A stretch of DNA of 64,000 bases, taken from NCBI GenBank assembly GCA_963726745.1, contig CAVSDR010000003.1, positions 160,001 to 224,000 of the forward strand, written 5' to 3'. Origin of the DNA: an uncultured Verrucomicrobiae bacterium. Lineage in GTDB: Bacteria > Verrucomicrobiota > Verrucomicrobiia > Chthoniobacterales > UBA10450. Made by a program: the position numbers and the translations under genes. Positions 1 to 63,308 of this stretch are shown in pieces (the first letter of the stretch is position 1; each line of letters opens with the position of its first letter). The notes under the pieces were generated by a model. That model was not told the DNA's origin. It did not search any database and worked only from the letters and a program-made list of their open reading frames with translations.

Positions 1-478
1 GCAGGAGCGCCGCCGCCTCGATCTCGGTGCGGCCTTTCAATTTGTAGCCGCCTTCCTCGCGCACGCTTTGCGGCAGCATCCCGATGTGCGCCATGAAGGG
101 AATGCCCGCGCGCACGATTGCCTCGATCTGCGGGACGTGATTCGTCCCGCCCTCGAGCTTTACTCCCTGCGCACCCGCGGCCACCAAGGCTCGCGCCGTC
201 GCCACCGCCTGCTCCGGCGTGTCATAGGTGTGGATCGGCAGGTCGGCCACGAGGAAGGCGCGCTTCACCGCCCGCGCGGCGGCGCGCGTGTGATGGAGCA
301 TTTCCGCGAGGGTCACCTCGGTCGTGTCCTCGTAGCCGAGCACGACCATGCCTAACGAGTCGCCGACCAGGATGAGGTCGATCCCCGCTTCGTCGAGCAG
401 CCGCGCGGTCGGGTAATCGTAGGCCGTCAGGGCCGTGATTCGCTCGCCGCGCAGCTTCTTCTGGCGAAAATCTTCCAT
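1..478 (-). CDS. panB: 3-methyl-2-oxobutanoate hydroxymethyltransferase (3' end runs off window)
   Basis: Manual translation: MEDFRQKKLRGERITALTAYDYPTARLLDEAGIDLILVGDSLGMVVLG...GVKLEGG...AHIGMLPQ, typical PanB motifs. Confidence 0.95.
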   Translation of the reverse strand, partial: MEDFRQKKLRGERITALTAYDYPTARLLDEAGIDLILVGDSLGMVVLGYEDTTEVTLAEMLHHTRAAARAVKRAFLVADLPIHTYDTPEQAVATARALVAAGAQGVKLEGGTNHVPQIEAIVRAGIPFMAHIGMLPQSVREEGGYKLKGRTEIEAAALL

Positions 479-489
479 CGCCCGGAAGG

Positions 490-984
490 CTACCACCGGG
501 AAGCGACCCGCACCAATCCCTCTGTCGCCGGCAATTGCGCGAGCAACTGCGCGACTGTGCGCGCCTGTCCCGGCAGGATCAGCTCCGGACGAATCTCCGC
601 CAGCGGCGCGAGCACGAATCGGCGCGCGGTCATGCGCGGATGCGGCAACTCCAGCGTCTCCGTGTGGATGATCTCGCTGTCTAAATAAAGCAGGTCGAGA
701 TCGAGCGTGCGCGGGGCGTTCTTCGGGTGCTCCGGCGCGCGTCCCGCCGCCGCCTCGAACTCGCGCAGTTTAGCCAGCAACTCGAGCGCCTCTCCGGCCC
801 ACTCCAGCTCGACCACCGCGTTGAGGAATTTCGGGTCGTCCGGCGCGCACTCCACCGGCTCGGTCTCATAAATTGCGGAAGCCAGGACTGGCTCCCTAAC
901 GAGTCGTGCCAGCGCCGCCTTCGCGGCCGACAGGTGCGCCCGGCGGTCTCCCAGGTTCGAGCCGAGGGCAATGCCCGCCCTCAT
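490..984 (-). CDS. folK: 2-amino-4-hydroxy-6-hydroxymethyldihydropteridine diphosphokinase
   Basis: IALGSNLGD, FLNAVV, PRTLDLDLL, LPHPRM..RRFVLAPL; ATGA overlap with dapB stop. Confidence 0.95.
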   Translation of the reverse strand: MRAGIALGSNLGDRRAHLSAAKAALARLVREPVLASAIYETEPVECAPDDPKFLNAVVELEWAGEALELLAKLREFEAAAGRAPEHPKNAPRTLDLDLLYLDSEIIHTETLELPHPRMTARRFVLAPLAEIRPELILPGQARTVAQLLAQLPATEGLVRVASRW

Positions 985-1676
985 GAGAGGCCGAGCACGT
1001 CCTCCATCGAGTAAAGCCCGGGCGGCTTCCCCATGAGCCATTGCGCGGCGCGCAGCGCCCCGGCGGCGAAAGTGTCGCGGCTCGCGGCCTGGTGCATGAG
1101 CTCCAGGCGTTCGCCGGCCCCGGCAAAAATCACCGTGTGCTCGCCCACCACATCGCCACCACGCAGCGCGTGCATCCCGATCTGCCGGGCGGGCCGTTCG
1201 CCGGTCATCCCTTCGCGCCCGTGGACCACGTCCCGCTCGTAATCGAGCCCGCGCGCTTCACACAAAATTTCCGCCAACCGCCGGGCCGTGCCGCTGGGCG
1301 CATCCTTCTTCAGCCGATGGTGCATCTCCACCACCTCGAGCTCGAATTCGCTGCCTAACAACTCCGCCGCGCGCCGCGTGAGCGCGAAGAGCGCGTTCAC
1401 CCCGATGCTGAAATTAGCCGACAAGATCACCGGCAGACGCTCGGCCGCAGCCGCGATCTTATCCCGCTCCGCCTGCGCCTGCCCAGTGGTGCCGATGACC
1501 ACCGGCTTCCCGTGCGCCAGGGTGCTGGCGGTCGCGTTCGCGTGGCTGAAATCGATGATCACGTCACAGCGCTCGAGATCGGCAATCTCCACTTCCGGCA
1601 TCGTCCCGGCGAGGTGCACGATCGCCTGCCCCATCCGGCCGCCCGCGCCGACCAAGCCGATCTGCAGCGCGCTCAT
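981..1676 (-). CDS. dapB: 4-hydroxy-tetrahydrodipicolinate reductase
   Basis: GAGGRMG, VIGTTG, EMHHRLKKDAPSGTA; start at 1676 overlaps dapA stop (ATGA). Confidence 0.95.
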   Translation of the reverse strand: MSALQIGLVGAGGRMGQAIVHLAGTMPEVEIADLERCDVIIDFSHANATASTLAHGKPVVIGTTGQAQAERDKIAAAAERLPVILSANFSIGVNALFALTRRAAELLGSEFELEVVEMHHRLKKDAPSGTARRLAEILCEARGLDYERDVVHGREGMTGERPARQIGMHALRGGDVVGEHTVIFAGAGERLELMHQAASRDTFAAGALRAAQWLMGKPPGLYSMEDVLGLS

Positions 1677-2554
1677 GGCTCGCTGGCGTCGAAGGCGGCG
1701 AGCGTTTTCCGCAGGCGCACTTCGGTTTCCGGCGCCATCTCGCAGAGCGGCAGCCGCACTTCCGCCGACATCATCCCGCGCCAGGCGAGCGCGGTTTTCA
1801 CCGGCACCGGGTTGGGTTCCATGAAGAGATCCTTGAAGAGCGGGAGCAAGCGCTGATGCCGCCGCCGCGCTTCCACGATCTCGCCGCGCTCGAAGGCGCG
1901 CACCAGCGCGACCACTTCCGCTGGAACAAGATTCGAAGCCACGCTGACCACGCCGACCGCACCCGCAGCCATGAAGGGCAGCGTCAGGCCGTCGTCTCCG
2001 CTCAGGACGGTGAAGCTTTCCGGGAGGAGCGCGCGCAACTCGCTCACGCGATCGACGCTGCCGCTGGCCTCCTTGATCGAGACGATGTTGCCGCAGGCTT
2101 CCGCCAGACGCCGAACAGTCGCCGGCTGGATGTCGACGCCGCAGCGCCCGGGAATGTTGTAGAGCATGATCGGCAGTTTGGTCGCCTGCGCGATCGCCTG
2201 GAAATGCCGGAACAAACCTTCCTGGCTCGGCTTGTTGTAATACGGCGCGACCACCAGCGCGCCCTGCACCCCGAGCTTCTCCGCGGCCACAGTGGCGGCG
2301 ATCGCTTCGCTCGTGGCATACGACCCCGTGCCGGCCATGACCGTGCAACGCCCCTGCGCGATCTCCACCGCGAGCCGGATCGCCTGCTCGCGCTCGTCGT
2401 GCGACAGCGTGGGCGTTTCGCCGGTGGTGCCGATGGCGATGATCCCGGTGATGCCGGCCGCGACCTGGCTCTCGATCAATTTCTCGAACGCCGGGACGTC
2501 GATCGCGCCGTCGCGGAAAGGCGTGACCAGCGCGGTGTAGGTGCCCTTGAACAT
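1673..2554 (-). CDS. dapA: 4-hydroxy-tetrahydrodipicolinate synthase
   Basis: ALVTPF, GTTGE, YNIPGR, IKEASG, LSGDD, PNPVPVK. Confidence 0.97.
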   Translation of the reverse strand: MFKGTYTALVTPFRDGAIDVPAFEKLIESQVAAGITGIIAIGTTGETPTLSHDEREQAIRLAVEIAQGRCTVMAGTGSYATSEAIAATVAAEKLGVQGALVVAPYYNKPSQEGLFRHFQAIAQATKLPIMLYNIPGRCGVDIQPATVRRLAEACGNIVSIKEASGSVDRVSELRALLPESFTVLSGDDGLTLPFMAAGAVGVVSVASNLVPAEVVALVRAFERGEIVEARRRHQRLLPLFKDLFMEPNPVPVKTALAWRGMMSAEVRLPLCEMAPETEVRLRKTLAAFDASEP

Positions 2555-2558
2555 CTCG

Positions 2559-3368
2559 TTAGACCTCGACCGTGCCTTCGAAGACGAAGTCGGCCGGGCC
2601 GCTCAAGGTCACGCCGGTGAAAGTGCTGTCTGTTTTGGTGAAGCCGACCTCGAGCGCGTCGCCGCCTTTGACGTGCACGCGGATCGGGGAGGCCGCACCT
2701 TCCGTGGCCGCGAAGAGAATTGCGCTCGCGACCACGCCCGTGCCACAGGCCAGGGTCTCGTCCTCCACCCCGCGCTCGTAAGTGCGAATGGCAATCTCCT
2801 GCGGCCCGCGCCGTTCCAGGAAATCAACGTTGGTCCCGCGCGGGGCGAATTCCGCGTGGTGCCGCAACGCGGAGCCGAGCGGGCGGATATCGACCTCGGA
2901 AATAGCCGGCACGATCACAACCGCATGCGGCACGCCGCTGTCGACGTAATGGCAGGTGTAGGTATCACCCAGCGCTTCGACCTGGAGGCCGAGGCGCATG
3001 TCCTTCGGGTCGCTCATCTGCAAGGTCACCGCTTCGCCCTGAAGCTGCGCCGCGATCACGCCCGCGGGCGTTTCGAAGGAGAGGTTCTCGCCGGTCCCGG
3101 CGACGCGGTGCGCGAAGCGGGCAAAGCAGCGCGCGCCGTTGCCGCACATCTCCGCCTCGCCGCCGTCGGCATTGTAATAGCGCATCCGGAAATCGGCGCC
3201 GTTCGCCGCCGGCTCGATCAAAAGCACGCCGTCGGCCCCGATCCCGCGATGGCGATCGCACAGGCGCTCGATCTGTTTGGCGGAGAGCTGCAAGGCGCCC
3301 GCGCGGTTGTCGAGCATGACGAAGTCATTGCCCGCGCCGTTCATTTTGATGAAGTCCAACTTCGGCAT
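2559..3368 (-). CDS. dapF: diaminopimelate epimerase
   Basis: GAGNDF, GIGADG, EMCGNGARC, YERGVEDETLACGTG; GGAGG SD upstream. Confidence 0.97.
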   Translation of the reverse strand: MPKLDFIKMNGAGNDFVMLDNRAGALQLSAKQIERLCDRHRGIGADGVLLIEPAANGADFRMRYYNADGGEAEMCGNGARCFARFAHRVAGTGENLSFETPAGVIAAQLQGEAVTLQMSDPKDMRLGLQVEALGDTYTCHYVDSGVPHAVVIVPAISEVDIRPLGSALRHHAEFAPRGTNVDFLERRGPQEIAIRTYERGVEDETLACGTGVVASAILFAATEGAASPIRVHVKGGDALEVGFTKTDSTFTGVTLSGPADFVFEGTVEV

Positions 3369-3431
3369 GGTGGTCCTCCTCTAGCATGCGGAGCGCGCCC
3401 CGTCATCCGGAGGGCGCTTAAGACACCGCGC

Positions 3432-4222
3432 TTAGCGCCGCGTGGCGCGCGTGAGCGGTTCGACGAAGGCGCGAATTTTGCCGGCGAGATCGGGATCGCC
3501 TCCGTGTTTGGCGATCTGGTCGACAATCGCGCTGCCGACGACCACGCCATCGGCGTGCGCGGCCACGGTTTTAACTTGGTCGGGATTGGAGACGCCGAAA
3601 CCAACGGCAATCGGCAAGTCGGTGCAGCGCGCGAATCTCGGCCACGCGTTCGCCGAGCGAGGCGGCGACGCTGGTTTGCGCGCCGGTCACGCCTTCGCGC
3701 GAGACGTAATAGATGAAGCCCTCGCCGCGCCGGCAGATTTCCTTGAGCCGCGACGCCGGAAGTGGTCGGCGCGACTAGGCGAATGTGCGCGATCGCCGGG
3801 CGGTGCAGCTCCACATCTTCATCGGGCGGAAGATCGAGGATGAGCAAGCCATCGACGCCGGCGGCCTCGGCTTCGCGATAAAAGGCGTCGAGCCCAAACT
3901 GCACCATCGGGTTCAGGTAGGTGTAGAGCACGATCGGGATTTCCGATTGAGCACGCACGGCGCGCACGCACTCGAGCACTCCGCGCACCGTCGCGCCGGC
4001 CTCGAGCGCACGCTGCGCCGCCATTTGGTTCACGATCCCGTCGGCCAGCGGATCGGAGAAAGGGACGCCTAATTCCAGGAGATCGACGCCCGCAGCCTCA
4101 AGCGCGCCGGCGATCTCCAGGGTGCGCGGAAAATCCGGATCGCCCGCGCAGACGTAGGCAATGAAAGCCGCGCGGTTTTCTTTGCGGCATTGAGCGAAGA
4201 GGCGTGCGATACGGTCTGGCAT
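3432..4222 (-). CDS. trpA: tryptophan synthase alpha chain (two apparent +1 frameshifts at ~3760 and ~3630)
   Basis: [14 protein letters not shown], then [44 protein letters not shown] spread over three frames. Confidence 0.9.
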
Positions 4223-4261
4223 TCCGCGCACCTTTCTCCGAAAACCGCCCGCTGCAAAACG

Positions 4262-4909
4262 ATGACTCCCGCGACCTTGCTCAATGGCTTCGTGCTCGGT
4301 TGGTCGGTGGCCTGGCCGCCGGGACCGATCAACGCCGAGATGATCCGACGCGGGTTGGTCCCGAAAGCGCGCGGCGGCGGCTTCTGGGCCGCGTGGCCGA
4401 TCGCGCTTGGCGCCTGCACCGGCGATTTCCTCTGGGCGTTTTGCGTCTCGTTAGGCGCAGGCGCGATTCTGAACTCGCTGGCTATTCGCCGCACCCTCGC
4501 GGTCGTGAGCTTGTCGCTTCTTCTCTTCCTGGCGACCAAGTTTGCCCTGGCTGCGTGGCAGATTTACCAGACCCATCGCGCGGCCGAACCGGGCGTTTTC
4601 GGCGAGGAAAAGCGGACGCGCGGCGGCTATTTCCTGGGGCTGCTGGTGGTCCTGACCAGTCCGTGGAACGTCGGCTTCTGGCTCGCGGTCATCGGTTCGC
4701 AGACGAACCTGGCGCACGGCGTGCGGGAGTCGCTCGCGCTCGCCGCGTCGGTGGTCTTGGGCGCGTTTGTTTGGGGCGTGGTGCTTTGCACCGCGGTGCA
4801 ACTCGGCGCGCGCATCTTCGCCCGGCCCGCCTGGCAGATCGGCACCCAGGCGCTGACCGCGGTGGTCATGCTTTGGTTTGCCGCGCGGTTGCTCCTGAAC
4901 TTTCCGTAA
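4262..4909 (+). CDS. LysE/RhtB family amino-acid exporter
   Basis: PPGPINA, GACTGD, LTSPWNVGFW; about 6 hydrophobic helices. Confidence 0.85.
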   Translation: MTPATLLNGFVLGWSVAWPPGPINAEMIRRGLVPKARGGGFWAAWPIALGACTGDFLWAFCVSLGAGAILNSLAIRRTLAVVSLSLLLFLATKFALAAWQIYQTHRAAEPGVFGEEKRTRGGYFLGLLVVLTSPWNVGFWLAVIGSQTNLAHGVRESLALAASVVLGAFVWGVVLCTAVQLGARIFARPAWQIGTQALTAVVMLWFAARLLLNFP

Positions 4910-4919
4910 ACGCCCGGCG

Positions 4920-5801
4920 CTAGTGTTTCGGCGCGCGGACAGTGCCGGTCTCGATCGCGCTTCGGCGCTGGGCCACGATGCGGTTGGCGGTTTCCTCGAC
5001 CATCTGCTCGAGGAGCATGCGCAAGTGCGTCCCGCGGCGATAATCTGCCGGCGCCATGTGGCGCACGCGATCCGCATGAGTCGCGAGCTGGAAACATTTC
5101 TTGAAGCCGGCCCGCGCCGGGTCGTCCGGATTATAGACCGCGATCGCTTCGCCGCCGTTCTTCCGCATGACCGTGAAGCACGGGACGTCGGTCGGGCCGT
5201 CGCCCAGGTAAATCATGTTCGGGAACGGAATCGGCCGAATGTCCGGGTCCATGTGATCGTTTACATCCTCGCTCATTTCGAGCAGGCCCTTGTTGATCCG
5301 GAAAAGATACTGCGTCTTCTGCGTGTGACTGATCACGCGCTTCGGGAAGGTGATCCGGCCCTCCCGGTCCTCGGCAAATTCGCAGCCGAAAATCGCGCGC
5401 ACATACGGCGCCAGGCGGCTGCCCTCGATCAAAATCTTCATCCCGGAGGAGATGATGTAATGCTCCACGTTGATCCCGTGGCTGCGGTGTTCCTCGGTCA
5501 GGAGCGTGCTGGCAAAATCATCGAACATCTCCGGCAACCCTTGGTAGAAATTCAATTTGCCGCCTAACGACTTGAGCTCGGCGTTGGTCGGCCGGTCCAT
5601 CCCGAGCGTGTCCAGCAGCACCTTCATGTAGGCCAGCTCGCTATCGTAGCCTTCCTCGCGCACGAATTCGCTGCAGCGCCGCCAGAAGCTGTCCTTGTTG
5701 ATCCCGAAGGCGGGGAAGACCACCTCGTCCTGCATGTAGCTCGGGCTGAGCGTTTGGTCGTAGTCGTAGACGATCGCGATCGTGTTTTGCGGAGTGGCCA
5801 T
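4920..5801 (-). CDS. HAD-like hydrolase
   Basis: DYDQTL motif I, ISSG motif II, YLGDGPTD motif IV. Confidence 0.85.
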   Translation of the reverse strand: MATPQNTIAIVYDYDQTLSPSYMQDEVVFPAFGINKDSFWRRCSEFVREEGYDSELAYMKVLLDTLGMDRPTNAELKSLGGKLNFYQGLPEMFDDFASTLLTEEHRSHGINVEHYIISSGMKILIEGSRLAPYVRAIFGCEFAEDREGRITFPKRVISHTQKTQYLFRINKGLLEMSEDVNDHMDPDIRPIPFPNMIYLGDGPTDVPCFTVMRKNGGEAIAVYNPDDPARAGFKKCFQLATHADRVRHMAPADYRRGTHLRMLLEQMVEETANRIVAQRRSAIETGTVRAPKH

Positions 5802-5807
5802 GGCTGG

Positions 5808-6437
5808 TTAACGAGTCTGCAGCTGCGCCACGAAATCGGCAAAAAGCGTCTCGTAGCCGGGACTGCGCTCGGGATGATACTGCACCCCGACGACAAAAGG
5901 ATGACTCGTTAGGCGAACCTGCTCGATGATGTCGTCGTCTGCGCTCCAGGCCTCGACCACCAGCCCGTCGCCCAGGCGATCGATCGCCTGGTGATGCGCG
6001 CTGTTCACTTTTTCAAAGCGATGCCGCGCGGCGCGTTCCGTGCGCAGCGGCTGCACGTTCTCGTCGCGCTGCTCCGGCGCGTTGTGGCCGGGAATGTCGA
6101 GGCGCAGGGTGCCGTCGAGAGCGACGTTCAAAAGCTGGTGGCCTTTGCAAATGGCCAGGATCGGCAGGTCGTGCTCGAGCGCATATTTCGCGGCCGCAAA
6201 TTCCCAGGCATCGCGCACCGGATCGACATCCGTGTCGAGCACCGAAGGATCGGGGATCTCCTGGCGCAGGAATTCCGCCGAGACATCCGGGCCGCCGGTG
6301 AGGAGCAGGCCGTCCATCTCTTCCAACGGCACCGCGCGCTCCGCGGCGTTCCAAAATTCCACCTCCGGATGCGCGGCAAAGGCGCGTTGGAACGGCGGGA
6401 CATCCTTCGGCCGAATCCAGGAAGCCACTTTCAACAT
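5808..6437 (-). CDS. class I glutamine amidotransferase, peptidase C26 / gamma-glutamyl-GABA hydrolase family
   Basis: LLLTGGPD, AICKGHQLLNV, NSAHHQAI, GVQYHPE. Confidence 0.9.
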   Translation of the reverse strand: MLKVASWIRPKDVPPFQRAFAAHPEVEFWNAAERAVPLEEMDGLLLTGGPDVSAEFLRQEIPDPSVLDTDVDPVRDAWEFAAAKYALEHDLPILAICKGHQLLNVALDGTLRLDIPGHNAPEQRDENVQPLRTERAARHRFEKVNSAHHQAIDRLGDGLVVEAWSADDDIIEQVRLTSHPFVVGVQYHPERSPGYETLFADFVAQLQTR

Positions 6438-6530
6438 CGCGAAGTGTGGGGTCCTTCCGGAGAGTTGTAAACTCGACCGCGAGCGCTCAGCGCAAGGCCG
6501 GCAAGCGAGAGCCAGCCGTTTCTAAGGACG

Positions 6531-8225
6531 ATGAAACGTTTGCTTCTGCTCGGCCTGGCAGCGGTTTCTTTGCAGCTGAACGCGGCGGCGAAAACGGAGA
6601 AGCCAGCGCCACGCGTCGAGATGACCGTGCCGGAGATCCGCGATGCCTTGCAGCAACACCAGTTCTCGATCGAGCGCCTCACGCGTTTCTACCTCGACCG
6701 CATCGCGGCCTATGACGATGCCGGGCCAAAAATCAACGCCGTGCTTGCGCTCAACCCTGCGGCGCTCGATCAAGCGCGCGCGCTTGACCGGCAGCGCGCT
6801 CAAAAAACGCGGCCGCCGCTTTTTGGCGTGCCGATCTTGCTCAAAGACAACATCGACACCGCCGACCTGCCGACCACTGCGGGCAGCGTCGCCCTGCGCG
6901 ATTCCCGGCCACCAGACGACGCTTTCATCGTGCAACGCCTCCGCGCGGCGGGCGCGATCGTCCTCGGAAAAGCGACGCTGACCGAGTGGGCCAACTTCCT
7001 CGCGCCAAACACCCCCGCGGGCTACAGCTCGCTGGCTGGTTTCAGCTTCAATCCCTACGACCCGCGGCCGGACTCGCGCAGCGAGGCGCCGTTCAACGAC
7101 GGGCGCCCGGTGCTCCCGACCGGCGGCTCCAGTTCCGGCCCGGCGCTGGCGGTGAACGCGAACTTGGCCGCGGTTGCGATCGGCACAGAGACCGATGGCT
7201 CGATCCTGAGCCCGGCGAACGCCAACGGCGTGGTCGGAATCAAACCAACGCTTGGCCTGGTGAGCCGGGACGGCATCATCCCGATCACCGCCGATCAGGA
7301 TACTGCCGGCCCGATCACGCGCACGGTGACCGACGCGGCGATCGTCCTCGGTGTGATCGCGGGCCACGACCCGAAAGACCCGGCGACAGATGTTTGCCTA
7401 ACGAAAGGTCGCTGCCTGACGGATTACACCCGCTTCCTCGATCGGAAAGCACTGCGCGGCGCGCGGCTGGCGGTTTACACTCCGCGCACGCCGCTGCCGG
7501 CGAATCGCCAGGGACTCCTCGACGCCGCCGTGGCCGATCTTGAAAAGCAGGGCGCCACCGTGCGGCGCCTGGCCGCGGAAGACATTCCGGTTCAGGCCGA
7601 CTCTTGCACCACCTACCCCCTGCCCGCGGTGCCGGAGCCACCGGCGATCCCGTGCTCCTCGGTCCTCCTTTACGGTTTCCGGCGTGATCTTGATACCTAC
7701 TTGGCGAACACGCCCGGCGCACCGCGGCGGAACTTGCAGGAAGTGGTCGCCTTCAATGCAGAGCAAGTCCCGCCTTTGAAATACGGACAAGGCATCGCGG
7801 AAGCGGCGAGCCAGCTGGACCTCGCGCCGGAAAGCGCCGACACGCGGCGTTACCAGCAGGATCGCGCGCGCGATCTCGCGCGTTCGCGCGACGCGCTCAA
7901 CGCGATTTACTACGGGCCGGACGGCCAGCCAGGGACCGAGGACGACACGGATGCAATCATCGCCGTGGGCAACACCTTCAGCACCGCGCCCGCCAAGGCC
8001 GGCTTCCCGAGCGTGACCGTGCCCGGTGGCTTCATCACCGCCGGCCCGAAAGATCCGCCGATTGCGGGGCCCTACCCGCAGACGATCACCTTTTCCGGTC
8101 CGGCCTTCTCGGAACCGAAGCTGATCGCGCTCGCCTACGCTTACGAGCAGGCGACGCAACACCGACGGCCGCCCGCGAGCACGCCGGCTCTCACTGCGGA
8201 CGGCGCGAAGACTAAAGCCCCATGA
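6531..8225 (+). CDS. secreted amidase-signature family enzyme
   Basis: Signal peptide; LKDNIDT, GGSSSG, GTETDGSI (Ser-cisSer-Lys triad). Confidence 0.92.
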   Translation: MKRLLLLGLAAVSLQLNAAAKTEKPAPRVEMTVPEIRDALQQHQFSIERLTRFYLDRIAAYDDAGPKINAVLALNPAALDQARALDRQRAQKTRPPLFGVPILLKDNIDTADLPTTAGSVALRDSRPPDDAFIVQRLRAAGAIVLGKATLTEWANFLAPNTPAGYSSLAGFSFNPYDPRPDSRSEAPFNDGRPVLPTGGSSSGPALAVNANLAAVAIGTETDGSILSPANANGVVGIKPTLGLVSRDGIIPITADQDTAGPITRTVTDAAIVLGVIAGHDPKDPATDVCLTKGRCLTDYTRFLDRKALRGARLAVYTPRTPLPANRQGLLDAAVADLEKQGATVRRLAAEDIPVQADSCTTYPLPAVPEPPAIPCSSVLLYGFRRDLDTYLANTPGAPRRNLQEVVAFNAEQVPPLKYGQGIAEAASQLDLAPESADTRRYQQDRARDLARSRDALNAIYYGPDGQPGTEDDTDAIIAVGNTFSTAPAKAGFPSVTVPGGFITAGPKDPPIAGPYPQTITFSGPAFSEPKLIALAYAYEQATQHRRPPASTPALTADGAKTKAP

Positions 8226-9939: not shown

Positions 9940-9945
9940 GGGCCC

Positions 9946-9974
9946 ACGCTACGCAGGGGCGCGCGCTTGGACAA
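9946..9974 (-). promoter_or_regulatory. sigma70-like promoter directly ahead of the DUF885 start (leaderless type)
   Basis: TTGTCC-17 nt-TAGCGT-6 nt-ATG on the minus strand. Confidence 0.6.
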
Positions 9975-10029
9975 CCCGCACCCGCGTGATCCTCCCTTGC
10001 GGCGAAAAATCGTCGCCGCATACTCACGG

Positions 10030-10248
10030 GTGCCCTCAAACGAGAAAACCGCGCGCCCTCCGAGCTCGCCCGCGCCGCGCCGCGGCCTGTGGCTCATGGG
10101 GCTGATCCTCGTGGTCATGGCCGCGCTCGCGATCTACTCCAACCGCCAGCGCGCGCATCGCCACCGCATCGAGAAAGTCACCATCGCCCCGCCGCCGGCG
10201 GCTTCCTTTACGCCCACCCCAGAGCCAACACGAATCGAGTCCGATTGA
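10030..10248 (+). CDS. small single-TM hypothetical protein
   Basis: GTG start, GLWLMGLILVVMAALAIY helix, Pro-rich tail; fills the gap before the next gene. Confidence 0.55.
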   Translation: MPSNEKTARPPSSPAPRRGLWLMGLILVVMAALAIYSNRQRAHRHRIEKVTIAPPPAASFTPTPEPTRIESD

Positions 10249-10265
10249 ATAATCGCCGTTACCAG

Positions 10266-50253: not shown

Positions 50254-50261
50254 TTCGCGGC

Positions 50262-55392: not shown

Positions 55393-55394
55393 GC

Positions 55395-56094
55395 TCAAGT
55401 CTTCTCCAGCCAGATCGCCTGGCGCGCCCAGCGGAATTTCCCCGCGCCAAAACTTCCGCCAGCCGGCCTTCTCCGCGAGCGCGCGGAGCTCCGCAAAGCT
55501 AAACGCCCGCGCCGCGGAAACGCGGCCATCTTCCCGCGTCATCCGGTCGCGAAAGATCAGGGCCGTTAGCAAATAAACGCCCACGTGCGCGAGCCAGCCG
55601 CGCCGAAGATCCGTCACCAGGACAAAGTGCCGGCTAATTTCCCGACATCTTCGCAGGAGCGCGACCGCGTCCTCGTCGCTGAAGTGGTGCAGCGCGAGCG
55701 AGCAGATCACCAGGTCGAAGGAGCCCTTCGCGCCAAACGTCAGCACATCCGCCTGCTCGCAGGTGATCTCCGGATAATCGCCGCTTAAGGCCTGCGCGGT
55801 CGCGAGCGTTCGTGGCTGGAAATCGACCGCTACGATCTCGACCTCGGCTCCGACCTGGCGTGCAAAATCCGCCACCAGCCGCGGAATATCGGCCGAGCCT
55901 GTCGCCAGATCCGCCACCCGCCAGCGATCCCCCGGCCGCAGCCAGCGGCGGAGAAATTTCTCCACCATCCGGTGGCTGCCGAACCAGCGATTGAGCGCGC
56001 GCAGGCTCCGGAGCGCGGCCGCCAATTCCGCCGCGGAGGCGTCCGGCCGGTCCATCAATTCCGGCTCCCCGGAGGCAAACTCCCGCCGGCTCAT
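55395..56094 (-). CDS. class I SAM-dependent methyltransferase (probable +1 frameshift at ~55450)
   Basis: ELMD, DLATGSAD, SLALHHF, DLRR; alternative-frame end ARQAIWLEKT* stops 2 nt before the panC ATG. Confidence 0.85.
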
Positions 56095-56102
56095 CTTGCT
56101 GC

Positions 56103-56849
56103 CTAACGAGCGAGAAAACGGCTCCACGATTCCGGCAGCGGCGCGCTTTCCACCTCGGCCGCGATCCGGCCTTCGAACTCCGGGTGAAAGGAAACGCTCG
56201 TCCCGTAAACCATGATCAGATCTTCCGAGCCTTCCGCGCGCAGCGCATGCGCCACGCCTGCGGGAATGACCACGCCGCAGTTGTTCGGACCGCGATGGTT
56301 GTCGCCCTCGATCAGGAAACGCATCGTCCGCGGCGGCAGGCCCGCGCGCGCCTCCTGCAGGATCATCTCCGCGTTTCCCTGCACGAAAAACATCACGTCC
56401 CACTGCTCCCGATCGTAGGGACGCGCCGCAAAATCTTCCGGCGCGCGCACGAAGAGTTCCTCGAACCATTGCGCTGCCTCTTTCCCTTCCGGGATGTGCG
56501 GCGGATGCACATGGAAGCCTTTTGCGGTCTGGGCAAACATCCGCGCGGTGGCCCACTGCGCCGGCCAAAAGCCGATCTTCGCCAGCAACCCTTCGTCGCG
56601 CCGCGCAAACTCCCCGAAGAAGCCGCGATGCCGCTGCGGATAAATCGCGCGCGCGAAAAGCTCCACCCCGGGAATCCAGGCCGCGCGCACTTCCGGCGTG
56701 TTCCGGTCCGCGGCCAGGAGCTTTCCAGCCTCGATCCCGGCGCCGCCGAGTTGCTCGGCCAGGCTGCCGCTGGCGTAGTCCCGCGTGGCCAGGGCGGCGC
56801 GCGCCTCCGCGGAGAGACCGGCCCAAAGGTTGTCGTCTGTTTTTTTCAT
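56103..56849 (-). CDS. RmlC-like cupin (dTDP-4-dehydrorhamnose 3,5-epimerase related)
   Basis: HRGFFGE, KGFHVH, IPAGVAHAL. Confidence 0.7.
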   Translation of the reverse strand: MKKTDDNLWAGLSAEARAALATRDYASGSLAEQLGGAGIEAGKLLAADRNTPEVRAAWIPGVELFARAIYPQRHRGFFGEFARRDEGLLAKIGFWPAQWATARMFAQTAKGFHVHPPHIPEGKEAAQWFEELFVRAPEDFAARPYDREQWDVMFFVQGNAEMILQEARAGLPPRTMRFLIEGDNHRGPNNCGVVIPAGVAHALRAEGSEDLIMVYGTSVSFHPEFEGRIAAEVESAPLPESWSRFLAR

Positions 56850-56856
56850 CGAGGAA

Positions 56857-59289
56857 TCATCTGCCTAACGAGAAATCCGCCTGCTCGCGAGAAAGATTTG
56901 GATTGTAGTAGGGATCGCATGCGATCACCTCCGCCCAGCGCTCGCGCATCACCTCGGTCTCGCGCGCTTCCACGCTCCGCCGGCGCGTGGCCGACTCGTG
57001 ATGATAAAGCTTGGCGAAGGGCGTGTAGACCACCAGGTAACCCGCGCGCCAGAGCTTCAAACACAGGTCGACATCGTTGAAGGTCACGGGCAGGCGCGCT
57101 TCATCGAACCCGCCGACCGCCTCGAAGACTTCCCGCCGCGTGAGCAGGCACGCGCCCGTGACCGCGCAATAATTCCGCGTCACCTGAAGTTGCCGGCAAA
57201 CTCCCGGCTCCTCCGCGCCAAAGCCGCGAAAAGCATGCTGCGCGATTCCGCCCACGCCCAGGACCACGCCGGCATGCTGGATGGTCTCGTCCGGGTAAAG
57301 CAGGCGCGCGCCAACTGCGCCCACCTCGGGACGCTGGACATGCTGGACCATCGCATGGAGCCACTCGCCCTCGATCACCTCGACGTCGTTGTTCAGGAAA
57401 AGCAGCCACGGGCAATCCGTCTGCTCGACCGCGAAATTGTTGATCGCGGAAAAGTTAAAGGGCCCCGGGTAACGCAGGACGCGGTGCGGGGTGCGCGCGA
57501 AATACTCCTGCGCTTCGGCGGTGACGCTGTCGTTATCCACCAGCACGATCTCGTAGTTCTCGTAGCTGGTCTTCTCGACCACGCTTTCGACGCAGCGCGC
57601 CAGCAGCTCGATCTGGTCGCGCACCGGGATGATGATGCAAACCTTGCGCGCCTCGCGCACGTCGCGCTTCACCCGGTAGGCATGCGTGGGCCAGTCGACC
57701 GTCACGTGTCCGGCTACGCCAGTGCGCTGGAGATGTTCCTCGATTGCTTTCTTCCCGGCTTCGAGCGCGAGCGGCTTCCGCCGGATGTTATCCGAGGTCG
57801 AGGAAGCGCTCCGTCGCCAGTGGTAAAGCACCCGCGGGAGATGATGGATGCGCTGCGTCCGCTCCGTCACCCGCAGGAGCAAATCGTAATCCTGCGCGCC
57901 ATCGAACTCCGGCCGGAAGCCCCCCACTTCTTCGATCAAACGCCGCCGCAGCACCGTCAGGTGCACGATGTAGTTGTAGGAGAGAAAAAAATCCGGCGAC
58001 CAATCCGGCTTGAAGATCGGCGCCTCCGGTCCTTGCTCGGTCAGCTTGTCTTCATCGGAATAGACCAGGTCGATCTCCGGGTTTTCCGCGAGCGCCTGGA
58101 CCACGCGGAAAAGCGCATCCGGCTCGAGCAGGTCGTCATGGTCCAGGAGCGCGATCCACTCACCCTGCGCGAGCGCGAGCCCGCGATTCGAAGCCACGGA
58201 AATTCCCCCACCCGCGGGCAGTCGCTCGTGCCGAATGCGAGCGTCGCGCGCGGCGATCTGCGGCAGCGCCGCGATCGTTTGCTCGTTCGTCGAGCCGTCG
58301 TCAATCAAGAGCAACTCCCAGTTTTCGTAGGCCTGCGCGCGGACCGATTCCACCGCCGCCTCGAGCCACTCGACCGGCGTGTTGAAGACCGGAGTGAGAA
58401 TGCTGATCGTCGGCGCGCAGGCAAACTTCGCCGCTTCCGCGCGCATTTGCGCGAGCGCTTGCGCGGTCGGCTGCTGGCGTTGCAGCCACGCTTGATATGC
58501 ACTGGCGCTCGCCGTCTCAGTTTCCCGGCGGCGCGGCTTTGGCGGCGCATCGCCCTGGAGGCGTTTGCGCACTTCGCGGAAGAGCTTTTGCGGCAGTCGA
58601 TAGGGCGCAAGGATCACCTGGCCGACCTTGCGCTCGGGACATTTCCGCAGCGCCTGCTTCTCCTGCTTCAGCTGGCGGACGGTTTTCTTGGCCTCCTTCA
58701 AGGCGAGCACTTTTTCCTCCAGCTTCGCGATGTGGCGATCGGCCGCTTCCAGCTCCGACATCCGCGTGCGCAAGGTCCGCTCGAGCGCCCGCTGGCGCTG
58801 GCTGGCGCGCGCAATCGCCTGCTCGACCGAGGCGATCGCGGCGGAGCCATCGGCTTCCGGCCGCCGCACCAGCAAGAGCGCGCCCGCCTCGAACTCGCTC
58901 ACGTCGAAATCGTAATCCGGGACGAAGCCGAGCCGCTGGAATTGCTCGACCAAAGACGGCCGCTGGCGCGCGACCTCGGCCGCCGGGCCGGGGACGAGCA
59001 CGATGGTTTGCGCGGCGGCGGCCAGCGCGCGCACCGCCGCCTCCTCGCTCCCGACGTTCTTCGGGTAAAGCCAGATGAGAATGTCGGCTAACGAGTGGTG
59101 TCGGTTCTCCGGGAGGGCCTGGCGCAGGTCTGCCGGCTCCGCAAAGGTGGGCAGGCCCGCGAGGGGAATCTCCCCCGCTTCCGCCGGCCAGCCGACGACC
59201 GCAAGCCGCGCGCTCCCGAACTTGCCCGCGAGGAGACGCGCGAAATCCGAGCGGAGCGAATGACTCGGCGGCTGCAGCACGGGGGACAT
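56857..59289 (-). CDS. glycosyltransferase with N-terminal domain, coiled coil and two GT2 domains
   Basis: ILTPVFN..IDDGS..LDHDD; IIIPVRD..VDNDS..LNNDVE..NDVDLCL. Confidence 0.92.
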   Translation of the reverse strand: MSPVLQPPSHSLRSDFARLLAGKFGSARLAVVGWPAEAGEIPLAGLPTFAEPADLRQALPENRHHSLADILIWLYPKNVGSEEAAVRALAAAAQTIVLVPGPAAEVARQRPSLVEQFQRLGFVPDYDFDVSEFEAGALLLVRRPEADGSAAIASVEQAIARASQRQRALERTLRTRMSELEAADRHIAKLEEKVLALKEAKKTVRQLKQEKQALRKCPERKVGQVILAPYRLPQKLFREVRKRLQGDAPPKPRRRETETASASAYQAWLQRQQPTAQALAQMRAEAAKFACAPTISILTPVFNTPVEWLEAAVESVRAQAYENWELLLIDDGSTNEQTIAALPQIAARDARIRHERLPAGGGISVASNRGLALAQGEWIALLDHDDLLEPDALFRVVQALAENPEIDLVYSDEDKLTEQGPEAPIFKPDWSPDFFLSYNYIVHLTVLRRRLIEEVGGFRPEFDGAQDYDLLLRVTERTQRIHHLPRVLYHWRRSASSTSDNIRRKPLALEAGKKAIEEHLQRTGVAGHVTVDWPTHAYRVKRDVREARKVCIIIPVRDQIELLARCVESVVEKTSYENYEIVLVDNDSVTAEAQEYFARTPHRVLRYPGPFNFSAINNFAVEQTDCPWLLFLNNDVEVIEGEWLHAMVQHVQRPEVGAVGARLLYPDETIQHAGVVLGVGGIAQHAFRGFGAEEPGVCRQLQVTRNYCAVTGACLLTRREVFEAVGGFDEARLPVTFNDVDLCLKLWRAGYLVVYTPFAKLYHHESATRRRSVEARETEVMRERWAEVIACDPYYNPNLSREQADFSLGR

Positions 59290-59359
59290 TATATTGATTG
59301 AAGGGGCGCGCAGGCAAATTTACGGTGCCGCGCCCGCGCCCGCTGCGCCGGCCGCTCGC

Positions 59360-61240
59360 ATGCTCGACCTCGGCATCTACCTTTTCTACCGGCTCGTGAC
59401 CGGTCTCGTGAGCGCGCTCCCCCTGCGGTTTCTCTTCTCGTTAGGCCAATTCCTCGGCCTGCTCGCCTGGTTCGTCTCGGGGAAATATCGCCGCCTGGCG
59501 CAGCGCAATCTCCGCATCGCATTCCCTGCGGAAACAGCCGGCAACTTGCGCGCGCTCAGCCGCCAGCATTTCCAGCGTCTGGGCGCGAACCTCCTCTGCA
59601 GCGTCAAGCTCGGGACCATGCCGCTCGCGGAAGTCGCGGAGCGCGTCACCCTGGAAAATGCCGACGCTTTGCACGCGCCGCTGCGCGCCGGCCGCGGCGT
59701 CGTCCTGGCCCTGAGTCACTTCGGGAGCTGGGAACTTTTCGCGCAAATCTTTACCCACCACTTCGGCTACGCGCCCATCAGCACCGTCTTCCAGCCGCTC
59801 GCGAACCAGCGGATCGACGCCGATGTGCGGCAAAAGCGCAGCCGCTCCGGCGCGATCTTGTTCGACCGGCGCGACGGTTTCCAGAAGCCGATGGAATTGC
59901 TCCGGCGCGGCGGTTTGGTCGGCGTCCTTTGCGATCAACACGCCGGCGACCAGGGCCTTTGGACGCCGTTTTTCGGCCGGCTCGCTTCGACCACACCGCT
60001 GCCGGGATTGCTCGCGCGACGCACCGGCGCGGCCGTGATCGTGGCCGCGATTTACACCGAGACGCCGGGACGGTGGCGCATGGTTTTTGCGCCGCCGCTA
60101 AATGACGCCGGCGACTCCGTGGAGGCGATCACCGCAAAGGCGAATGCCGCGGTCGCGGAGCAAATCCGGCGCGCGCCGGCGGATTGGTTTTGGGTGCACA
60201 ATCGCTGGAAAACGCCGCGGCCAAATTTCCTCCTCGCGCGCTACAAACGCGGCGTCTATTTGCCGGCAGATTCTCCCGCGGAAACGTTGCAACCCTTCCG
60301 CATTCTGGTGCGCGCGAGCAACTGGCTGGGCGATTGCATCATCAGCGCGCCCGCGGTGCGCGCGCTCAAGCGCGGCCGTCCCGATGCCCACGTGACCGTA
60401 GCCGTGCCGGCCAAACTTGCGCCGGTCTGGCGGCTCATCCCGGAGGTCGACGAAGTCCTGCCGTTGCCCTCGAAAAGTTTGTGGGAAACGCGCCGGCTTT
60501 TCGCGCGGCAAAAGCCGTTCGACGTGGCCGTCTTGCTGCCAAATTCCCTCCGCGTCGCGCTCGAGGCCTGGGGCATTCCGCGCGTGGTCGGCTTCCGCGG
60601 GCACCGGCGCGCCTGGCTGCTCGACCAGATCGTCCCGCCGCGCGTGGTCGCCGGGCCGATCGAGCACCAGGTGCGGCATTACCTCCATCTGGCGCGCGAT
60701 CTCGGCGCGAAAACAGACAGCGCTTTGGATGCCAGGCCGCGCCGCCTAACGAGTGGTCGCCGGCTGGGCCTTTGTCCGGGCGCGGAATACGGCCCGGCGA
60801 AGCGCTGGCTCCCGGAGCGTTTCGCAGAAGTGGCGGCGGCTTTCCCGGATCGAGAGTGGATCCTTTTCGGCACCGAGAAGGACGCCAGGGCGGGCGCAGA
60901 AATAGCCAGCACTTTGGGCGCGCGCGCCGTCAACCGCATCGGCCAGACGACGCTCGAGGAGCTGATCGCGGAGCTGCAAGAATGCCGGCTCTTATTGACG
61001 AACGACACCGGCACGATGCATCTCGCGACGCTGCTCGGCGTGCCCGTGGTCGCGATTTTCGGCTCGACCGAGGACCGGCTCACCGGTCCGCTCGGCCCCG
61101 GAAATCTCGTCGTGCGCCATCACGTCGCCTGCAGCCCTTGTTTCCTGCGCGAGTGCCCGATCGATTTTCGCTGTATGACCGAGGTGACCGCGGAGGAAGT
61201 GATCGCCGCGGTGCGCGCGCAGCTCGCACTCCCGGAGTAA
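59360..61240 (+). CDS. lipid A secondary acyltransferase (LpxL-like) fused to heptosyltransferase II (WaaF-like, GT9)
   Basis: HFGSWE, CDQHAG, WFWVHNRWK; NWLGD, CPGAEYGPAKRW, TNDTGTMHLA, CSPCFLRECP. Confidence 0.92.
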   Translation: MLDLGIYLFYRLVTGLVSALPLRFLFSLGQFLGLLAWFVSGKYRRLAQRNLRIAFPAETAGNLRALSRQHFQRLGANLLCSVKLGTMPLAEVAERVTLENADALHAPLRAGRGVVLALSHFGSWELFAQIFTHHFGYAPISTVFQPLANQRIDADVRQKRSRSGAILFDRRDGFQKPMELLRRGGLVGVLCDQHAGDQGLWTPFFGRLASTTPLPGLLARRTGAAVIVAAIYTETPGRWRMVFAPPLNDAGDSVEAITAKANAAVAEQIRRAPADWFWVHNRWKTPRPNFLLARYKRGVYLPADSPAETLQPFRILVRASNWLGDCIISAPAVRALKRGRPDAHVTVAVPAKLAPVWRLIPEVDEVLPLPSKSLWETRRLFARQKPFDVAVLLPNSLRVALEAWGIPRVVGFRGHRRAWLLDQIVPPRVVAGPIEHQVRHYLHLARDLGAKTDSALDARPRRLTSGRRLGLCPGAEYGPAKRWLPERFAEVAAAFPDREWILFGTEKDARAGAEIASTLGARAVNRIGQTTLEELIAELQECRLLLTNDTGTMHLATLLGVPVVAIFGSTEDRLTGPLGPGNLVVRHHVACSPCFLRECPIDFRCMTEVTAEEVIAAVRAQLALPE

Positions 61241-61241
61241 G

Positions 61242-61661
61242 ATGGAGGCGATGAAGTCCGAGACGCCGCGCATTCGCACCGAGGTGCAGGTGATGTTTTT
61301 CGACACCGACTGCGCGGCCGTGGTGCACAACATCGCCTACCTGCGTTTCATCGAGACTGCGCGCACCTTGCTCGCGGAGCAGCTCGGGCTCGAGCTCGTG
61401 CAGATGGGCGAGGAGAAAAAATATCCGGTGGTTGTGCGCACCGAAATTGATTACCGCCGCCCCGCGAAATTAGGCGACAAGCTGGTGGTCGAAGGCTGGC
61501 TCGACCGGATGGAGCGGGTGCGCTTCTGGTGCGGCTTCCGCATCACCCGCCCGGCGGACGAGACGCTGATCGTCGAGTGCCGGCAAAGCCTGGCGATCGT
61601 CGAAATGCCCTCGGCGAAACTCCTGCGCCTCCCGGAGGATTGGGAAAAATTCCGCGCCTAA
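61242..61661 (+). CDS. acyl-CoA thioesterase (4HBT/YbgC family)
   Basis: DTDCAAVVHNIAYLRFIE, IDYRRPAKLGD. Confidence 0.9.
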   Translation: MEAMKSETPRIRTEVQVMFFDTDCAAVVHNIAYLRFIETARTLLAEQLGLELVQMGEEKKYPVVVRTEIDYRRPAKLGDKLVVEGWLDRMERVRFWCGFRITRPADETLIVECRQSLAIVEMPSAKLLRLPEDWEKFRA

Positions 61662-61667
61662 CGAACG

Positions 61668-63308
61668 ATGGCCGCCGGCGCCCACACCTTTGCCTTGGGA
61701 GAAACGCTCCTGGAGCCGCAGGTGCTCCCGCCGCCGCCCACGCGGCACGCGCTCCTGGCTTTCCTGCTCGCGCTCGCTGCCATTCTTCATCTCGGCACCG
61801 CTGGCTGGAGCGAAATTCACAACGGCCCCGAGGGCTATTACGCAGGCGCGGCCCGGGAATTGATCGCGCACCCGGCGGAGGCCGGCAGACTCCCACATGA
61901 TCCCCCGCTCCTGCTTTGGCTGCTGCTGGGTTCGCTGAAAACCTTTGGGCTCTCGGCGATGGCTGCGCGGGTGCCGATCGCACTCGCGAGCATCAGCGCG
62001 GTCGCCTTCACTTTTCTTATCGGCGAACGGCTGGCGGATTACTGGCGCGGCTTTCTCGCCGGGCTGCTGCATCTTTGCTCGTTAGGCATGTTCGTCTGGG
62101 GGCGGCTGGTCGCGCCCGAGCCGCTCTTCGCCGCAATTCTCGGCGCGGCGCTCTTCTGCGCGGTCTGCGGCTACCAACGGCAACGCCGGCGGCAATGGTG
62201 GTTCACTGGAGTCTGGCTCTGCGCTGGTCTCGCCGGGCTGGCGAAAGGTCCGGCTGGGCCGCTCTACCTGGGCGCGATCCTGCTGCTGCTCGCGCTTCCT
62301 TTTCGCGAAGCGCGGTTGCGTTTTCGCCAAATCTTCCGCTGGCCCGGCCTGCTGCTTTTCGCCGCTCTGCTGGCGGCCTGGCCGCTGTGGCTACGCTGGA
62401 TGTCGGTCGAGACGCCGGGCGTCTGGTTCCTCCCCTTCGCGGTCAATTTCCGCGAGCCGCAGGCCTTGCGGCTGGCGCGCTTCCTCGCGACTCATCTCGT
62501 CTGGTGGTTTCCGGCGTGGACGCTCATCCTGCCGGGTCTGCTTTTCGCGTGGAGGAAAATTATCCGGCCACATGAGTTCGGCTTCGCCGAGGCGTTGCCG
62601 CTCGTCTGGATGGCAGTCGGCTTCGTCCCGTTCCTTTTTCTCCCGGCGCGCAACGAATACCATTCCGTCGCGATGTGGAGCGGGCTCGCGCTCTGGGCCG
62701 CGTGCGCCTGGGAGCGCATGCCGCCGCGGCTGCGGACCGCCGGCCTGGCGATGACCGCGGCCGGCGCGCTCTTCATGGTCGCGGCCACTTTTGGGAAATG
62801 GCTTCCGCGCTTGCTGCCGGCGCCCGCGTGGGAGCCAGCGCTTTGGGTGGTCGCGTCCATGGCGGCAATCCTGTGCGCAGCTGTGGCGGTGGCGGCGTTT
62901 TTCGTGCACCGGCAACGGGATACCCTCGCGCTCACGATCGTGCTCCTGGCGGTCGCGCCGGCGGGCTTGAGCATCGCCGAGGCGATGGTGCGCTTTGAGC
63001 CGGAGCTTTCCTTCGCGAGCGCGGTTCGCTTTCTCGAACCGCGCCTGGGCGAACGCGGCGAGGTGCTTTTCGAGGGCAACGCCCGTAGCGGCAGCAGCCT
63101 GCGTTTTTATCTCGATCGGCCATTCACCCTCGTGGCCCCGGCGACGACCGCGCAAGCCCTCGAGCGCATGCGCGCGCCGCATCCGGTTTACCTGATCGTG
63201 GAGAAATCGCGGCTGGTCCTGTGGCAGGCGCGTTTAACCAGCGAGTTCCACGTTTTCCACCAGGAACACACCTGCGGGCGGCACGTGATTCTGAGCAATC
63301 AGCCCTGA
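61668..63308 (+). CDS. ArnT/PMT-like (GT-C) membrane glycosyltransferase
   Basis: EGYYAGAARE, PPLLLW, LAKGPAG; multi-TM. Confidence 0.8.
   Translation: MAAGAHTFALGETLLEPQVLPPPPTRHALLAFLLALAAILHLGTAGWSEIHNGPEGYYAGAARELIAHPAEAGRLPHDPPLLLWLLLGSLKTFGLSAMAARVPIALASISAVAFTFLIGERLADYWRGFLAGLLHLCSLGMFVWGRLVAPEPLFAAILGAALFCAVCGYQRQRRRQWWFTGVWLCAGLAGLAKGPAGPLYLGAILLLLALPFREARLRFRQIFRWPGLLLFAALLAAWPLWLRWMSVETPGVWFLPFAVNFREPQALRLARFLATHLVWWFPAWTLILPGLLFAWRKIIRPHEFGFAEALPLVWMAVGFVPFLFLPARNEYHSVAMWSGLALWAACAWERMPPRLRTAGLAMTAAGALFMVAATFGKWLPRLLPAPAWEPALWVVASMAAILCAAVAVAAFFVHRQRDTLALTIVLLAVAPAGLSIAEAMVRFEPELSFASAVRFLEPRLGERGEVLFEGNARSGSSLRFYLDRPFTLVAPATTAQALERMRAPHPVYLIVEKSRLVLWQARLTSEFHVFHQEHTCGRHVILSNQP

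Follow-up and report, generated by a model that had tools for sequence, protein, structure and literature searches.

Introduction

Sequence-specific uptake tags have been described for two proteobacterial families, and the cyanobacterial HIP1 (highly iterated palindrome 1) is a debated third case. The current study concerns a short word, termed word A, which recurs throughout a 64-kb stretch of an uncultured Verrucomicrobiae bacterium (the window; contig CAVSDR010000003.1, positions 160,001 to 224,000) and throughout the genome to which it belongs (G000; 3.41 Mb, seven contigs). Its core is CCTAACGA, and its extended consensus, GCCTAACGAG(T)nnW, is graded, spans 10-16 bp and tolerates edge variants. 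Word A is real, strong and undescribed in the literature searched, where no published description was found (most subscription journals lie outside that coverage), and our verdict is that it is a variant of the hyper-abundant self-tag kind. Also new here are a second motif (motif B), the existence of independent, self-avoiding words, and a match to the attI/attC core of integrons.

The uptake signal sequences (USS) of Pasteurellaceae and the DNA uptake sequences (DUS) of Neisseriaceae, with the receptor ComP, are described as having a non-palindromic core of 9-10 bp and 1,000-2,000 copies in both orientations, with even spacing, tripeptide enrichment, a location in variable protein stretches and scarcity in foreign DNA (PMC2817400, PMC2397512). 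Word A resembles them in these respects; it is short and non-palindromic, and occurs about once per 1-2 kb in both orientations. Unlike them, it shows neither terminator pairs nor a deficit in open reading frames (ORFs), two independent words are found per genome, and the comEA gene of G000 is broken. The analogy with DUS/USS, proposed in a first-pass annotation of the window, thus fits the statistics but does not extend to identity, and word A was not classed as DUS or USS because the terminator and non-coding features are lacking.

HIP1 (GCGATCGC), with DmtA/DmtC, is likewise hyper-abundant and selected as DNA, and it has been linked to transformation (PMC5861425, PMC13756078, 10.1101/2024.09.10.611283); it differs from word A in being a palindrome. 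Two further systems offer partial parallels. The core of word A, CTCG|TTAG, is identical to the crossover region of the attI and attC sites (R box) of integrons in this family, secondary attG sites being a related case. Thermus thermophilus ComZ (PDB 6QVI) has possible counterparts in two predicted G000 proteins that combine a pilin with a beta-solenoid (DUF7305), whereas uptake in Thermus is described as lacking apparent sequence specificity (PMC6561018).

Abundance and strand balance of word A

In the window, 30 exact copies of CCTAACGA (19 on the plus and 11 on the minus strand) and 41 weight-matrix sites were found, the ensemble extending over 350..62087 on both strands. The whole of G000 holds 1,514 copies, at 353-632 per Mb on every one of the seven contigs, and the base that follows GCCTAAC is G in 92% and A in 7% of cases. 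Genes were taken from a self-trained caller (2,909 calls, restricted to the 2,565 with a score >20; some starts and low-GC genes were missed). A shuffle of synonymous codons, which keeps proteins and codon usage, left 24.6 copies in the coding sequences (CDS) of the genome compared with 1,073 observed (44-fold), the corresponding values for the reversed control word being 45 and 109. For the CDS of the window the shuffle gave 0.25 copies (maximum 1 in 12 shuffles) versus 23 observed.

A peptide or codon effect, a repeat element or an assembly artefact would be the most trivial explanation. The assembly does contain indel-type errors, as in a trpA-like gene, but word A lies in four reading frames and in stop codons, its copies have flanks unrelated to one another, it withstands the shuffle control, and it is present in 150 independent assemblies; the probability of such an origin is negligible.

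The strands were balanced on contigs of uniform GC skew (335/331 on C6, 137/136 on C4), and the word therefore has no polarity. Being non-palindromic, intragenic and 8-10 bp long, it could be compared with the polar signals read by AddAB/RecBCD (Chi) or FtsK (KOPS, FtsK orienting polar sequences), but it lacks their polarisation along replichores, and its density and rare-codon use exceed those usual for Chi and KOPS. A function of this type is very improbable. Low-GC islands, low GC serving as a proxy for foreign origin, were poor in word A: 10-kb bins with a zero count mostly had 57-62% GC compared with 64%, and density correlated with GC (Spearman 0.44).

Reading frames and selection on the DNA word

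Inside the genes of G000, word A encodes SLG 480 times, out of 735 occurrences of this tripeptide (6.2 expected), and PN[DE] 230 times out of 368 (16.5 expected); it is read as xLTx 273 times and as xVR 90 times, and it overlaps 109 of 757 TAA and 105 of 920 TAG stops. The claim that all six frames are used was correct for the four sense frames within genes, the remaining two occurring only as terminal stop codons. TTA accounts for 61% of Leu codons within word A, 24% within motif B and 1.1% elsewhere (867 TTA codons lie in motif B and 784 in word A). Of the other codons expected to be rare outside the motifs, CTA (0.9%) and AGG (0.8%) were so, but CCT (6.0%) was not. Equal codon use outside motif contexts, which the first-pass annotation had named as the result that would overturn its reading, was not observed.

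The tripeptides themselves were enriched, with observed/expected ratios in G000 of 1.68 for SLG (reversed 0.89) and 2.18 for PN[DE] (reversed 1.20), close to the 1.8-2.7-fold reported for USS/DUS (PMC2817400). The ratios for SLG and PN[DE] were 0.97 and 0.68 in 39 outgroup loci, and 1.75 and 4.73 in dense relatives. No enrichment of the LVR and [RG]LT tripeptides was seen in G000.

Word A sites were compared in orthologs that share at least 55% identity and come from a set of retrieved loci. Word A was retained exactly at 8 of 16 sites in dense congeners (7 of 7 where the amino acids agree), 9 of 32 in medium congeners, 5 of 26 in dense genomes of other genera, 1 of 86 in sparse genera (1 of 27 with equal amino acids) and 0 of 8 in outside genomes. 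In all six ortholog groups the residues encoded by the word were less conserved than their flanks (e.g. 62% vs 69%), indicating an origin of many sites through amino-acid replacement where the protein tolerates it. One-step neighbours of the word were depleted, with TCG-TTG at 0 of 81 non-word TCG-Leu-Gly and a single CCT-AAT compared with 230 CCT-AAC, and this scarcity was read as current or very recent maintenance. Motif-codon use and ortholog retention both support the original proposal that selection or drive targets the DNA word and not the peptide.

At the level of single copies, all positions listed by the first-pass annotation held CCTAACGA or its reverse complement, and the frames assigned to them were confirmed. 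S-L-G is encoded at 351 (TCG-TTA-GGC in a minus-strand gene labelled panB; 350..359, plus strand), 4448, 5563, 9050, 13859, 14468, 40727 and 48422. P-N-[DE] is found at 11355 (P-N-E; 11354..11363, plus strand), 21569, 22361, 23342, 24105 and 44057, and xLT at 5906 (R-L-T-S; 5905..5914, minus strand), 7397, 14769 and 60745. L-V-R is encoded at 43723 and, by coordinate arithmetic on ORF 490-1041 (the called folK start is too late), at 895 in folK, where the variant CCCTAACGAG occupies 894..903 on the plus strand. TAA stops are supplied at 44621 (44620..44629, minus strand) and 61657 (61656..61665, plus strand) and a TAG stop at 56102, and the copy at 47299 (47298..47307, plus strand) lies between convergent genes. 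Several copies share a gene: three lie in the ATP-dependent DNA ligase gene (two S-L-G and one G-L-T-S; 13858..14777, both strands), two in aroA (L-V-R and P-N-D; 43722..44065, both strands), and of four P-N-D/E copies at 21568..24113 (plus strand) three belong to a 1,410-aa ORF and one to rsmE. The unused opportunities pointed out near 3655 and 8995 are both present, the SLG near 3655 lying in the shifted frame of trpA. The labels panB, LysE, HAD and trpA are those of the annotation and carry no confirming family match.

Motif B, word C and self-avoidance

Motif B (SAWNKYGYYGNCTAAW) was 51-fold enriched and nearly private to G000. In the form SAWNKYGYYGNCTAAWW it has about 6,000 matrix sites in this genome, with 1,024 strict copies in CDS compared with 19.9 after shuffling. 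Strict copies numbered 1,429 in G000, 528 in G046, 92 in G015 and at most 49 in each of the other 148 genomes; G046 uses a related dialect, WGAKCGCGYYGGCTAA (206 kb examined). A further word, word C (AAGATCGACA), had, by hand count, at least 500 copies in 37 of the 150 genomes, and occurs together with word A in one genus. In the window, motif B was represented by 25 strict matches and 115 weight-matrix sites (posterior >0.5) over 670..63747 on both strands, for example at 1413..1428 (minus strand) and at 41029..41044 (plus strand), about 20 bp from the word A site 40999-41008. The two words overlap on the plus strand at 5553..5571, with a common GNCTAA core and word A giving S-L-G in a minus-strand gene, and again at 56092..56110, where word A gives the minus-strand TAG stop.

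Copies of the same word avoid each other. In G000 the A-A pair correlation stayed at 0.29-0.70 for distances of 20-300 bp and reached 1.1-1.2 beyond 400 bp, and B-B was 0.47-0.89 at 20-300 bp, whereas A-B was 1.0-1.2, i.e. the two words are mutually indifferent. Gaps of <200 bp between word A copies numbered 64 (173 expected), a spacing more even than random. The same was seen in the use of SLG/PN[DE] opportunities. With another word A within 60 bp, 9 of 26 were used; the figure rose to 20 of 44 when it lay 60-120 bp away and to 67-74% for distances of 200-1,000 bp, and proximity to motif B made no difference up to 700 bp. The pattern was replicated in another genus (340 kb of G066), with A-A at 0.16-0.81 below 400 bp, C-C at 0.34-0.91 below 300 bp and A-C at 0.84-1.26. 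The short-range depletion of word A held in all four orientations, direct and inverted pairs both lying at 0.37-0.64, which rules out the cost of pseudo-attC hairpins as its cause.

Self-avoidance within 300 bp suggests that the benefit of each word saturates over a few hundred bases; for USS, two copies within 100 bp are described as giving no added uptake (PMC7811141). The independence of A and B suggests in turn that the words may act at separate steps or in separate processes.

Distribution in the family and in Gemmatirosa

The nearest named relatives of G000 are Chthoniobacterales/Spartobacteria metagenome-assembled genomes. Over 150 family genomes of 36 genera, the density of GNCTAACGA ranged from 10 to 1,425 per Mb, with 31 genomes above 400 per Mb (hand count). 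Outside the family, GCCTAACGA occurred in 0-18 copies in each of 199 genomes of the phylum and in 1-19 copies in 16 of the order, and abundant word A is thus confined to one Chthoniobacterales family within the phylum genomes compared. The family genomes are kin and not independent samples. The tallies include the unpublished genomes G001, G008, G042, G046, G053, G169 and G507, and only the statements on the motif B dialect and on G046 depend on an unpublished genome (G046). Apparent words in G080 and G063 were set aside, one being a local repeat and the other only ~3.6-fold enriched; the G080 locus (L186) contains eight near-identical short repeats clustered within 10 kb. Sequencing reads gave one partial match, near-identical and of low cover, and no usable variation at word sites.

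The 8-mer of word A, GCCTAACG, was also found in the cultured Gemmatirosa kalamazoonensis, a member of another phylum. In 200 of the 1,106 kb of its plasmid 1, GCCTAAC has 164 copies (76 plus, 88 minus; 820 per Mb), accounting for 164 of 189 CTAA. The next base is G in 86% and A in 9%, a tolerance like that in G000. A second over-represented word on this plasmid, AGGACTGAAG, has 16-25 copies in the 200 kb.

Relation to integron att sites

Outside the family, occurrences of word A in cassette-spaced clusters are attC sites. A profile search of G000 gave 25 attC hits. Of these, 17 (one partial) form an array at C6:736-745 kb, at the head of which stands an attI-like site whose spacer is TTCTCG. 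CTCGTTAG terminates 17 of the 23 full attC in G000 and 28 of 33 in other family genomes, and among the 20 attI examined beside intI, of which contig ends truncate 2, the core is CTC|GTTAGRY in all 18 that can be read. Word A contains GTTAGGC together with the CTC spacer of the family, in agreement with the GTTRRRY consensus and its G|TT crossover. With flanks included, 14 of the 23 G000 attC scored inside the range of genomic word sites versus 1 of 300 resampled controls, so that an 8-bp core common to attC and word A is unlikely to be due to chance. A 17-letter attC motif was present in 22 of 22 family genomes and reached at least 8 matches in only 3 of 179 others (2 mismatches allowed; hits in dense genomes may be plain words).

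These observations would suit an origin linked to integrons, in which a reader that evolved for the cassette crossover core (in capture or processing), or an integrase-like one, would have spread the core through the chromosome as a by-product. The occurrence of IntI in 92 of 151 genomes and the convergence of an unrelated phylum on the same 8-mer agree with this, as does the description of transformation supplying single-stranded DNA cassettes to the chromosomal integrons of Vibrio cholerae (PMC12614218). Word A differs from att sites, however, in consisting of half-sites only, in being narrower than GTTRRRY, in having ~2,000 copies in core genes under selection, and in being kept in a genome without intact intI. 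Only 19 of 2,025 CTAACGA in G000 fall in attC, and att sites therefore do not explain the count of word A. Paired boxes or a hairpin, as around a cassette, were not found at word A (CTAA-N6-TTAG occurs 5 times, not above other spacers). The two also differ in preference: most att sites have GTTAGAT or GTTAGAC at their end, forms that word A disfavours, and only 2 of 18 attI end in GTTAGGC. The GTTAGAT form, accepted by the integrase, has 7 copies genome-wide in G000, equal to the number of attC ending so. No intact intI was found in G000, G015 or G046, G000 having a fragment only, although word A appears to be actively maintained there, and IntI is common in dense and sparse genera alike. Five outside genomes chosen for attC-motif matches hold only 28-165 CTAACGA and no genome-wide word. 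Finally, the overlap amounts to one evolutionary event per phylum, which could have run in either direction. Taken together, an integron-linked origin is unlikely.

The companion words had no significant match to att sites. The right part of motif B resembles, by eye, the IntI1 attG hotspot GWT-n3-CRGM (10.1101/2022.09.11.507474), and word C and attC have GATCTTG in common, also by eye only; on attI, motif B scored below its own site range.

Cassette arrays without intact integrase lie at C6:736,300-745,300, C4:149,600-151,100, C4:24,500-25,400, C3:632,300-634,700 and C2:58,600-60,500 of G000. There are three attI-like sites, each with a TTCTCG spacer and TAA-N6-TTA arms, and the intI fragment lies at C2:58,610. 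The attI regions upstream of intI (L335-L354) carry a short inverted repeat and an upstream GATTAGRC or GATTATAC box, the latter similar by eye to the right half of motif B. A TAA-N6-TTA site at C5:120,899, intergenic and 15 bp from the cumulative GC-skew maximum, is a possible dif. Although it looked similar to motif B by eye, its score was -5 bits, and a link between the two was rejected; conservation of this site across 151 genomes was not above control, and the canonical dif pattern showed no excess over control in 5 genomes.

Competence genes and candidate readers

Genes predicted from sequence to encode competence functions are present in G000 or its relatives: comEC was detected in 142 of 151 genomes (split in three) and dprA in 5 of 5. 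G000 has two putative PilB-type ATPases, PilC, a further secretion ATPase and 18 pilin-type N-termini. Two predicted minor-pilin operons each end in a DUF7305 ComZ-like pilin (C3:585,491-586,936 and C6:624,781-626,133). No solved structure matches the pilin by sequence; for the one of the two that was modelled (pLDDT 80), the best solved match was Thermus ComZ (Foldseek E 2e-7, TM only 0.23). DUF7305 pilins occur in 91 of 151 genomes, with 0-7 paralogs each.

A second candidate was a ComEA-like gene of the SNase-HhH (helix-hairpin-helix) type, which in G000 is split by rearrangement (C4:17,176-17,874, with a broken HhH piece at C2:230,178-230,300), is frameshifted in G046 and is intact in several congeners. 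Both the pilins and the SNase-HhH protein were rejected as receptor, as neither tracks words A, B or C. Around comEC, no variable DNA-binding gene was found among 39 proteins scanned at 12 of 20 loci, and ComP_DUS had no match among 116 proteins around the pilin loci.

An orphan beta-class DNA methyltransferase gene (C3:981,230-982,020), beside an OB-HD nuclease gene, is syntenic in 6 of 6 family genomes (66-72% identity) and was found in 0 of 4 outside genomes. This distribution would suit a methylation tag comparable to HIP1 with DmtA/DmtC, in which a resident methyltransferase would have the word, or part of it, as its target and methyl-dependent repair or transformation would have amplified it. 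The enzyme is equally conserved in the word-free genome G063, which removes it as a reader, and in genomes with other words, and the graded consensus of 10-16 bp is unlike a methyltransferase site. Type I-like methyltransferases were patchy (4 of 5 genomes). The type of sequencing used for the Gemmatirosa methylome sees 5-methylcytosine poorly. Its reported motifs are RGATCY, ATGCAC and CCAGN7TCA only (PMC3974934), and the 8-mer is not among them, despite the richness of the plasmid in GCCTAAC. HIP1 is described as raising transformation in a way that depends on methylation (10.1101/2024.09.10.611283); for word A, a methylation tag appears improbable.

The words could also be intracellular marks, each being bound by a protein that shapes the nucleoid or that labels self DNA for protection from a nuclease or defence system, with one site per few hundred bases being enough. 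Independent words would suit independent proteins, the word is about as dense in coding as in non-coding DNA, it persists despite a broken or missing comEA, and arguments have been made for a role of HIP1 in chromosome architecture (PMC5861425). Viral DNA may also bear on this. Two-word patterns retrieved 17 viral loci, of which one looks host-like: L164, a 44-kb temperate phage contig of IMG/VR with 17 CTAACGA on both strands (control 4), is possibly a phage of a word A host. This contig was, however, picked by a pattern requiring two copies, and 15 of the 17 copies lie within 13 kb around the integrase and replication genes. No candidate protein was found for such marks, and a 100-fold range of density within one family would be odd for an essential architecture site; the proposal is doubtful, if worth keeping in view. 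Two other phage loci, L158 and L165, were rejected as word carriers, since all their copies follow the coding strand and probably reflect codon bias, and no general phage mimicry is claimed.

A proposed self-DNA tag in DNA acquisition

The reading that we tentatively prefer, while rating it somewhat below an even chance, is that word A is a lineage-specific self-DNA tag, DUS/USS-like in its working, with a benefit in DNA acquisition that saturates. A protein that recognises the sequence, and is active in the binding or uptake of outside DNA or in processing it before homologous recombination, would favour fragments that bear the word, and point mutations creating the word would then be fixed wherever the protein sequence tolerates them. 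A second copy within ~300 bp would add little. A separate step, or a separate process of similar length scale, would read motif B and, in other genera, word C. The sequences show enrichment, conservation as DNA, absence of polarity, self-avoidance, mutual independence, scarcity in low-GC islands and the presence of comEC, dprA, pilus ATPases and ComZ-like pilins, while a reader, its place at uptake and the sense of the 300 bp are our inference.

Several findings weigh against a self-DNA tag of this type. USS/DUS are described as under-represented in ORFs (PMC2817400), whereas word A has 392 copies per Mb in coding and 423 in non-coding DNA (the latter class diluted by uncalled foreign genes). 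Close inverted pairs of the terminator type showed no excess, only 8 inverted neighbours at <80 bp being found among 1,748 gaps. If two alternative receptors served a single uptake step, their words should be mutually exclusive, which is not the case for A and B, and a pure species tag does not predict the same 8-mer in another phylum. As to the machinery, DUF7305 pilins were not found in dense genomes such as G013 and G024, and their tree is not sorted by word; in G000 the HhH part of the ComEA-like gene is missing; SNase-HhH was found in 94 of 151 genomes, and not with that query in the other 57; and a genome of 100% completeness that is dense in word C lacks HHH_3.

A combined scheme, to which we give a low probability, is that two soil phyla evolved independently, or share by gene transfer, an acquisition reader tuned to the cassette crossover core. 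The cassette-capture signal would then have become a genome-wide self tag, on which further words (B and C) were stacked, each read at its own step. If a reader tuned to the integron core is real, it would join integron biology with the evolution of uptake sequences and add to the uptake signals a third, multi-word kind, from one of the most abundant lineages of soil. A signal comparable to the known uptake sequences would alter the view of how gene exchange in soil is gated. It would have reshaped the proteome of a large family of soil Verrucomicrobia through several stackable words, with a core common to integron crossover sites and a cultured member of another phylum. Whatever their function, the words can be used now as markers for binning and for assigning phages to hosts.

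Other features of the window

In the trpA-like gene (3341-4231; label unconfirmed by a family match) a frameshift lies about midway, and split genes (trpA-like, hsdM-like, DUF885 and recQ) suggest indel errors in the assembly. At 25916-26362 a 21-bp tandem repeat is present in 21 copies (93% matches), which has no spacers and so is not a CRISPR array; on the minus strand it gives a seven-residue, coiled-coil-like repeat. A tRNA gene at 32738-32811 (Rfam RF00005) was the sole Rfam match in the window.

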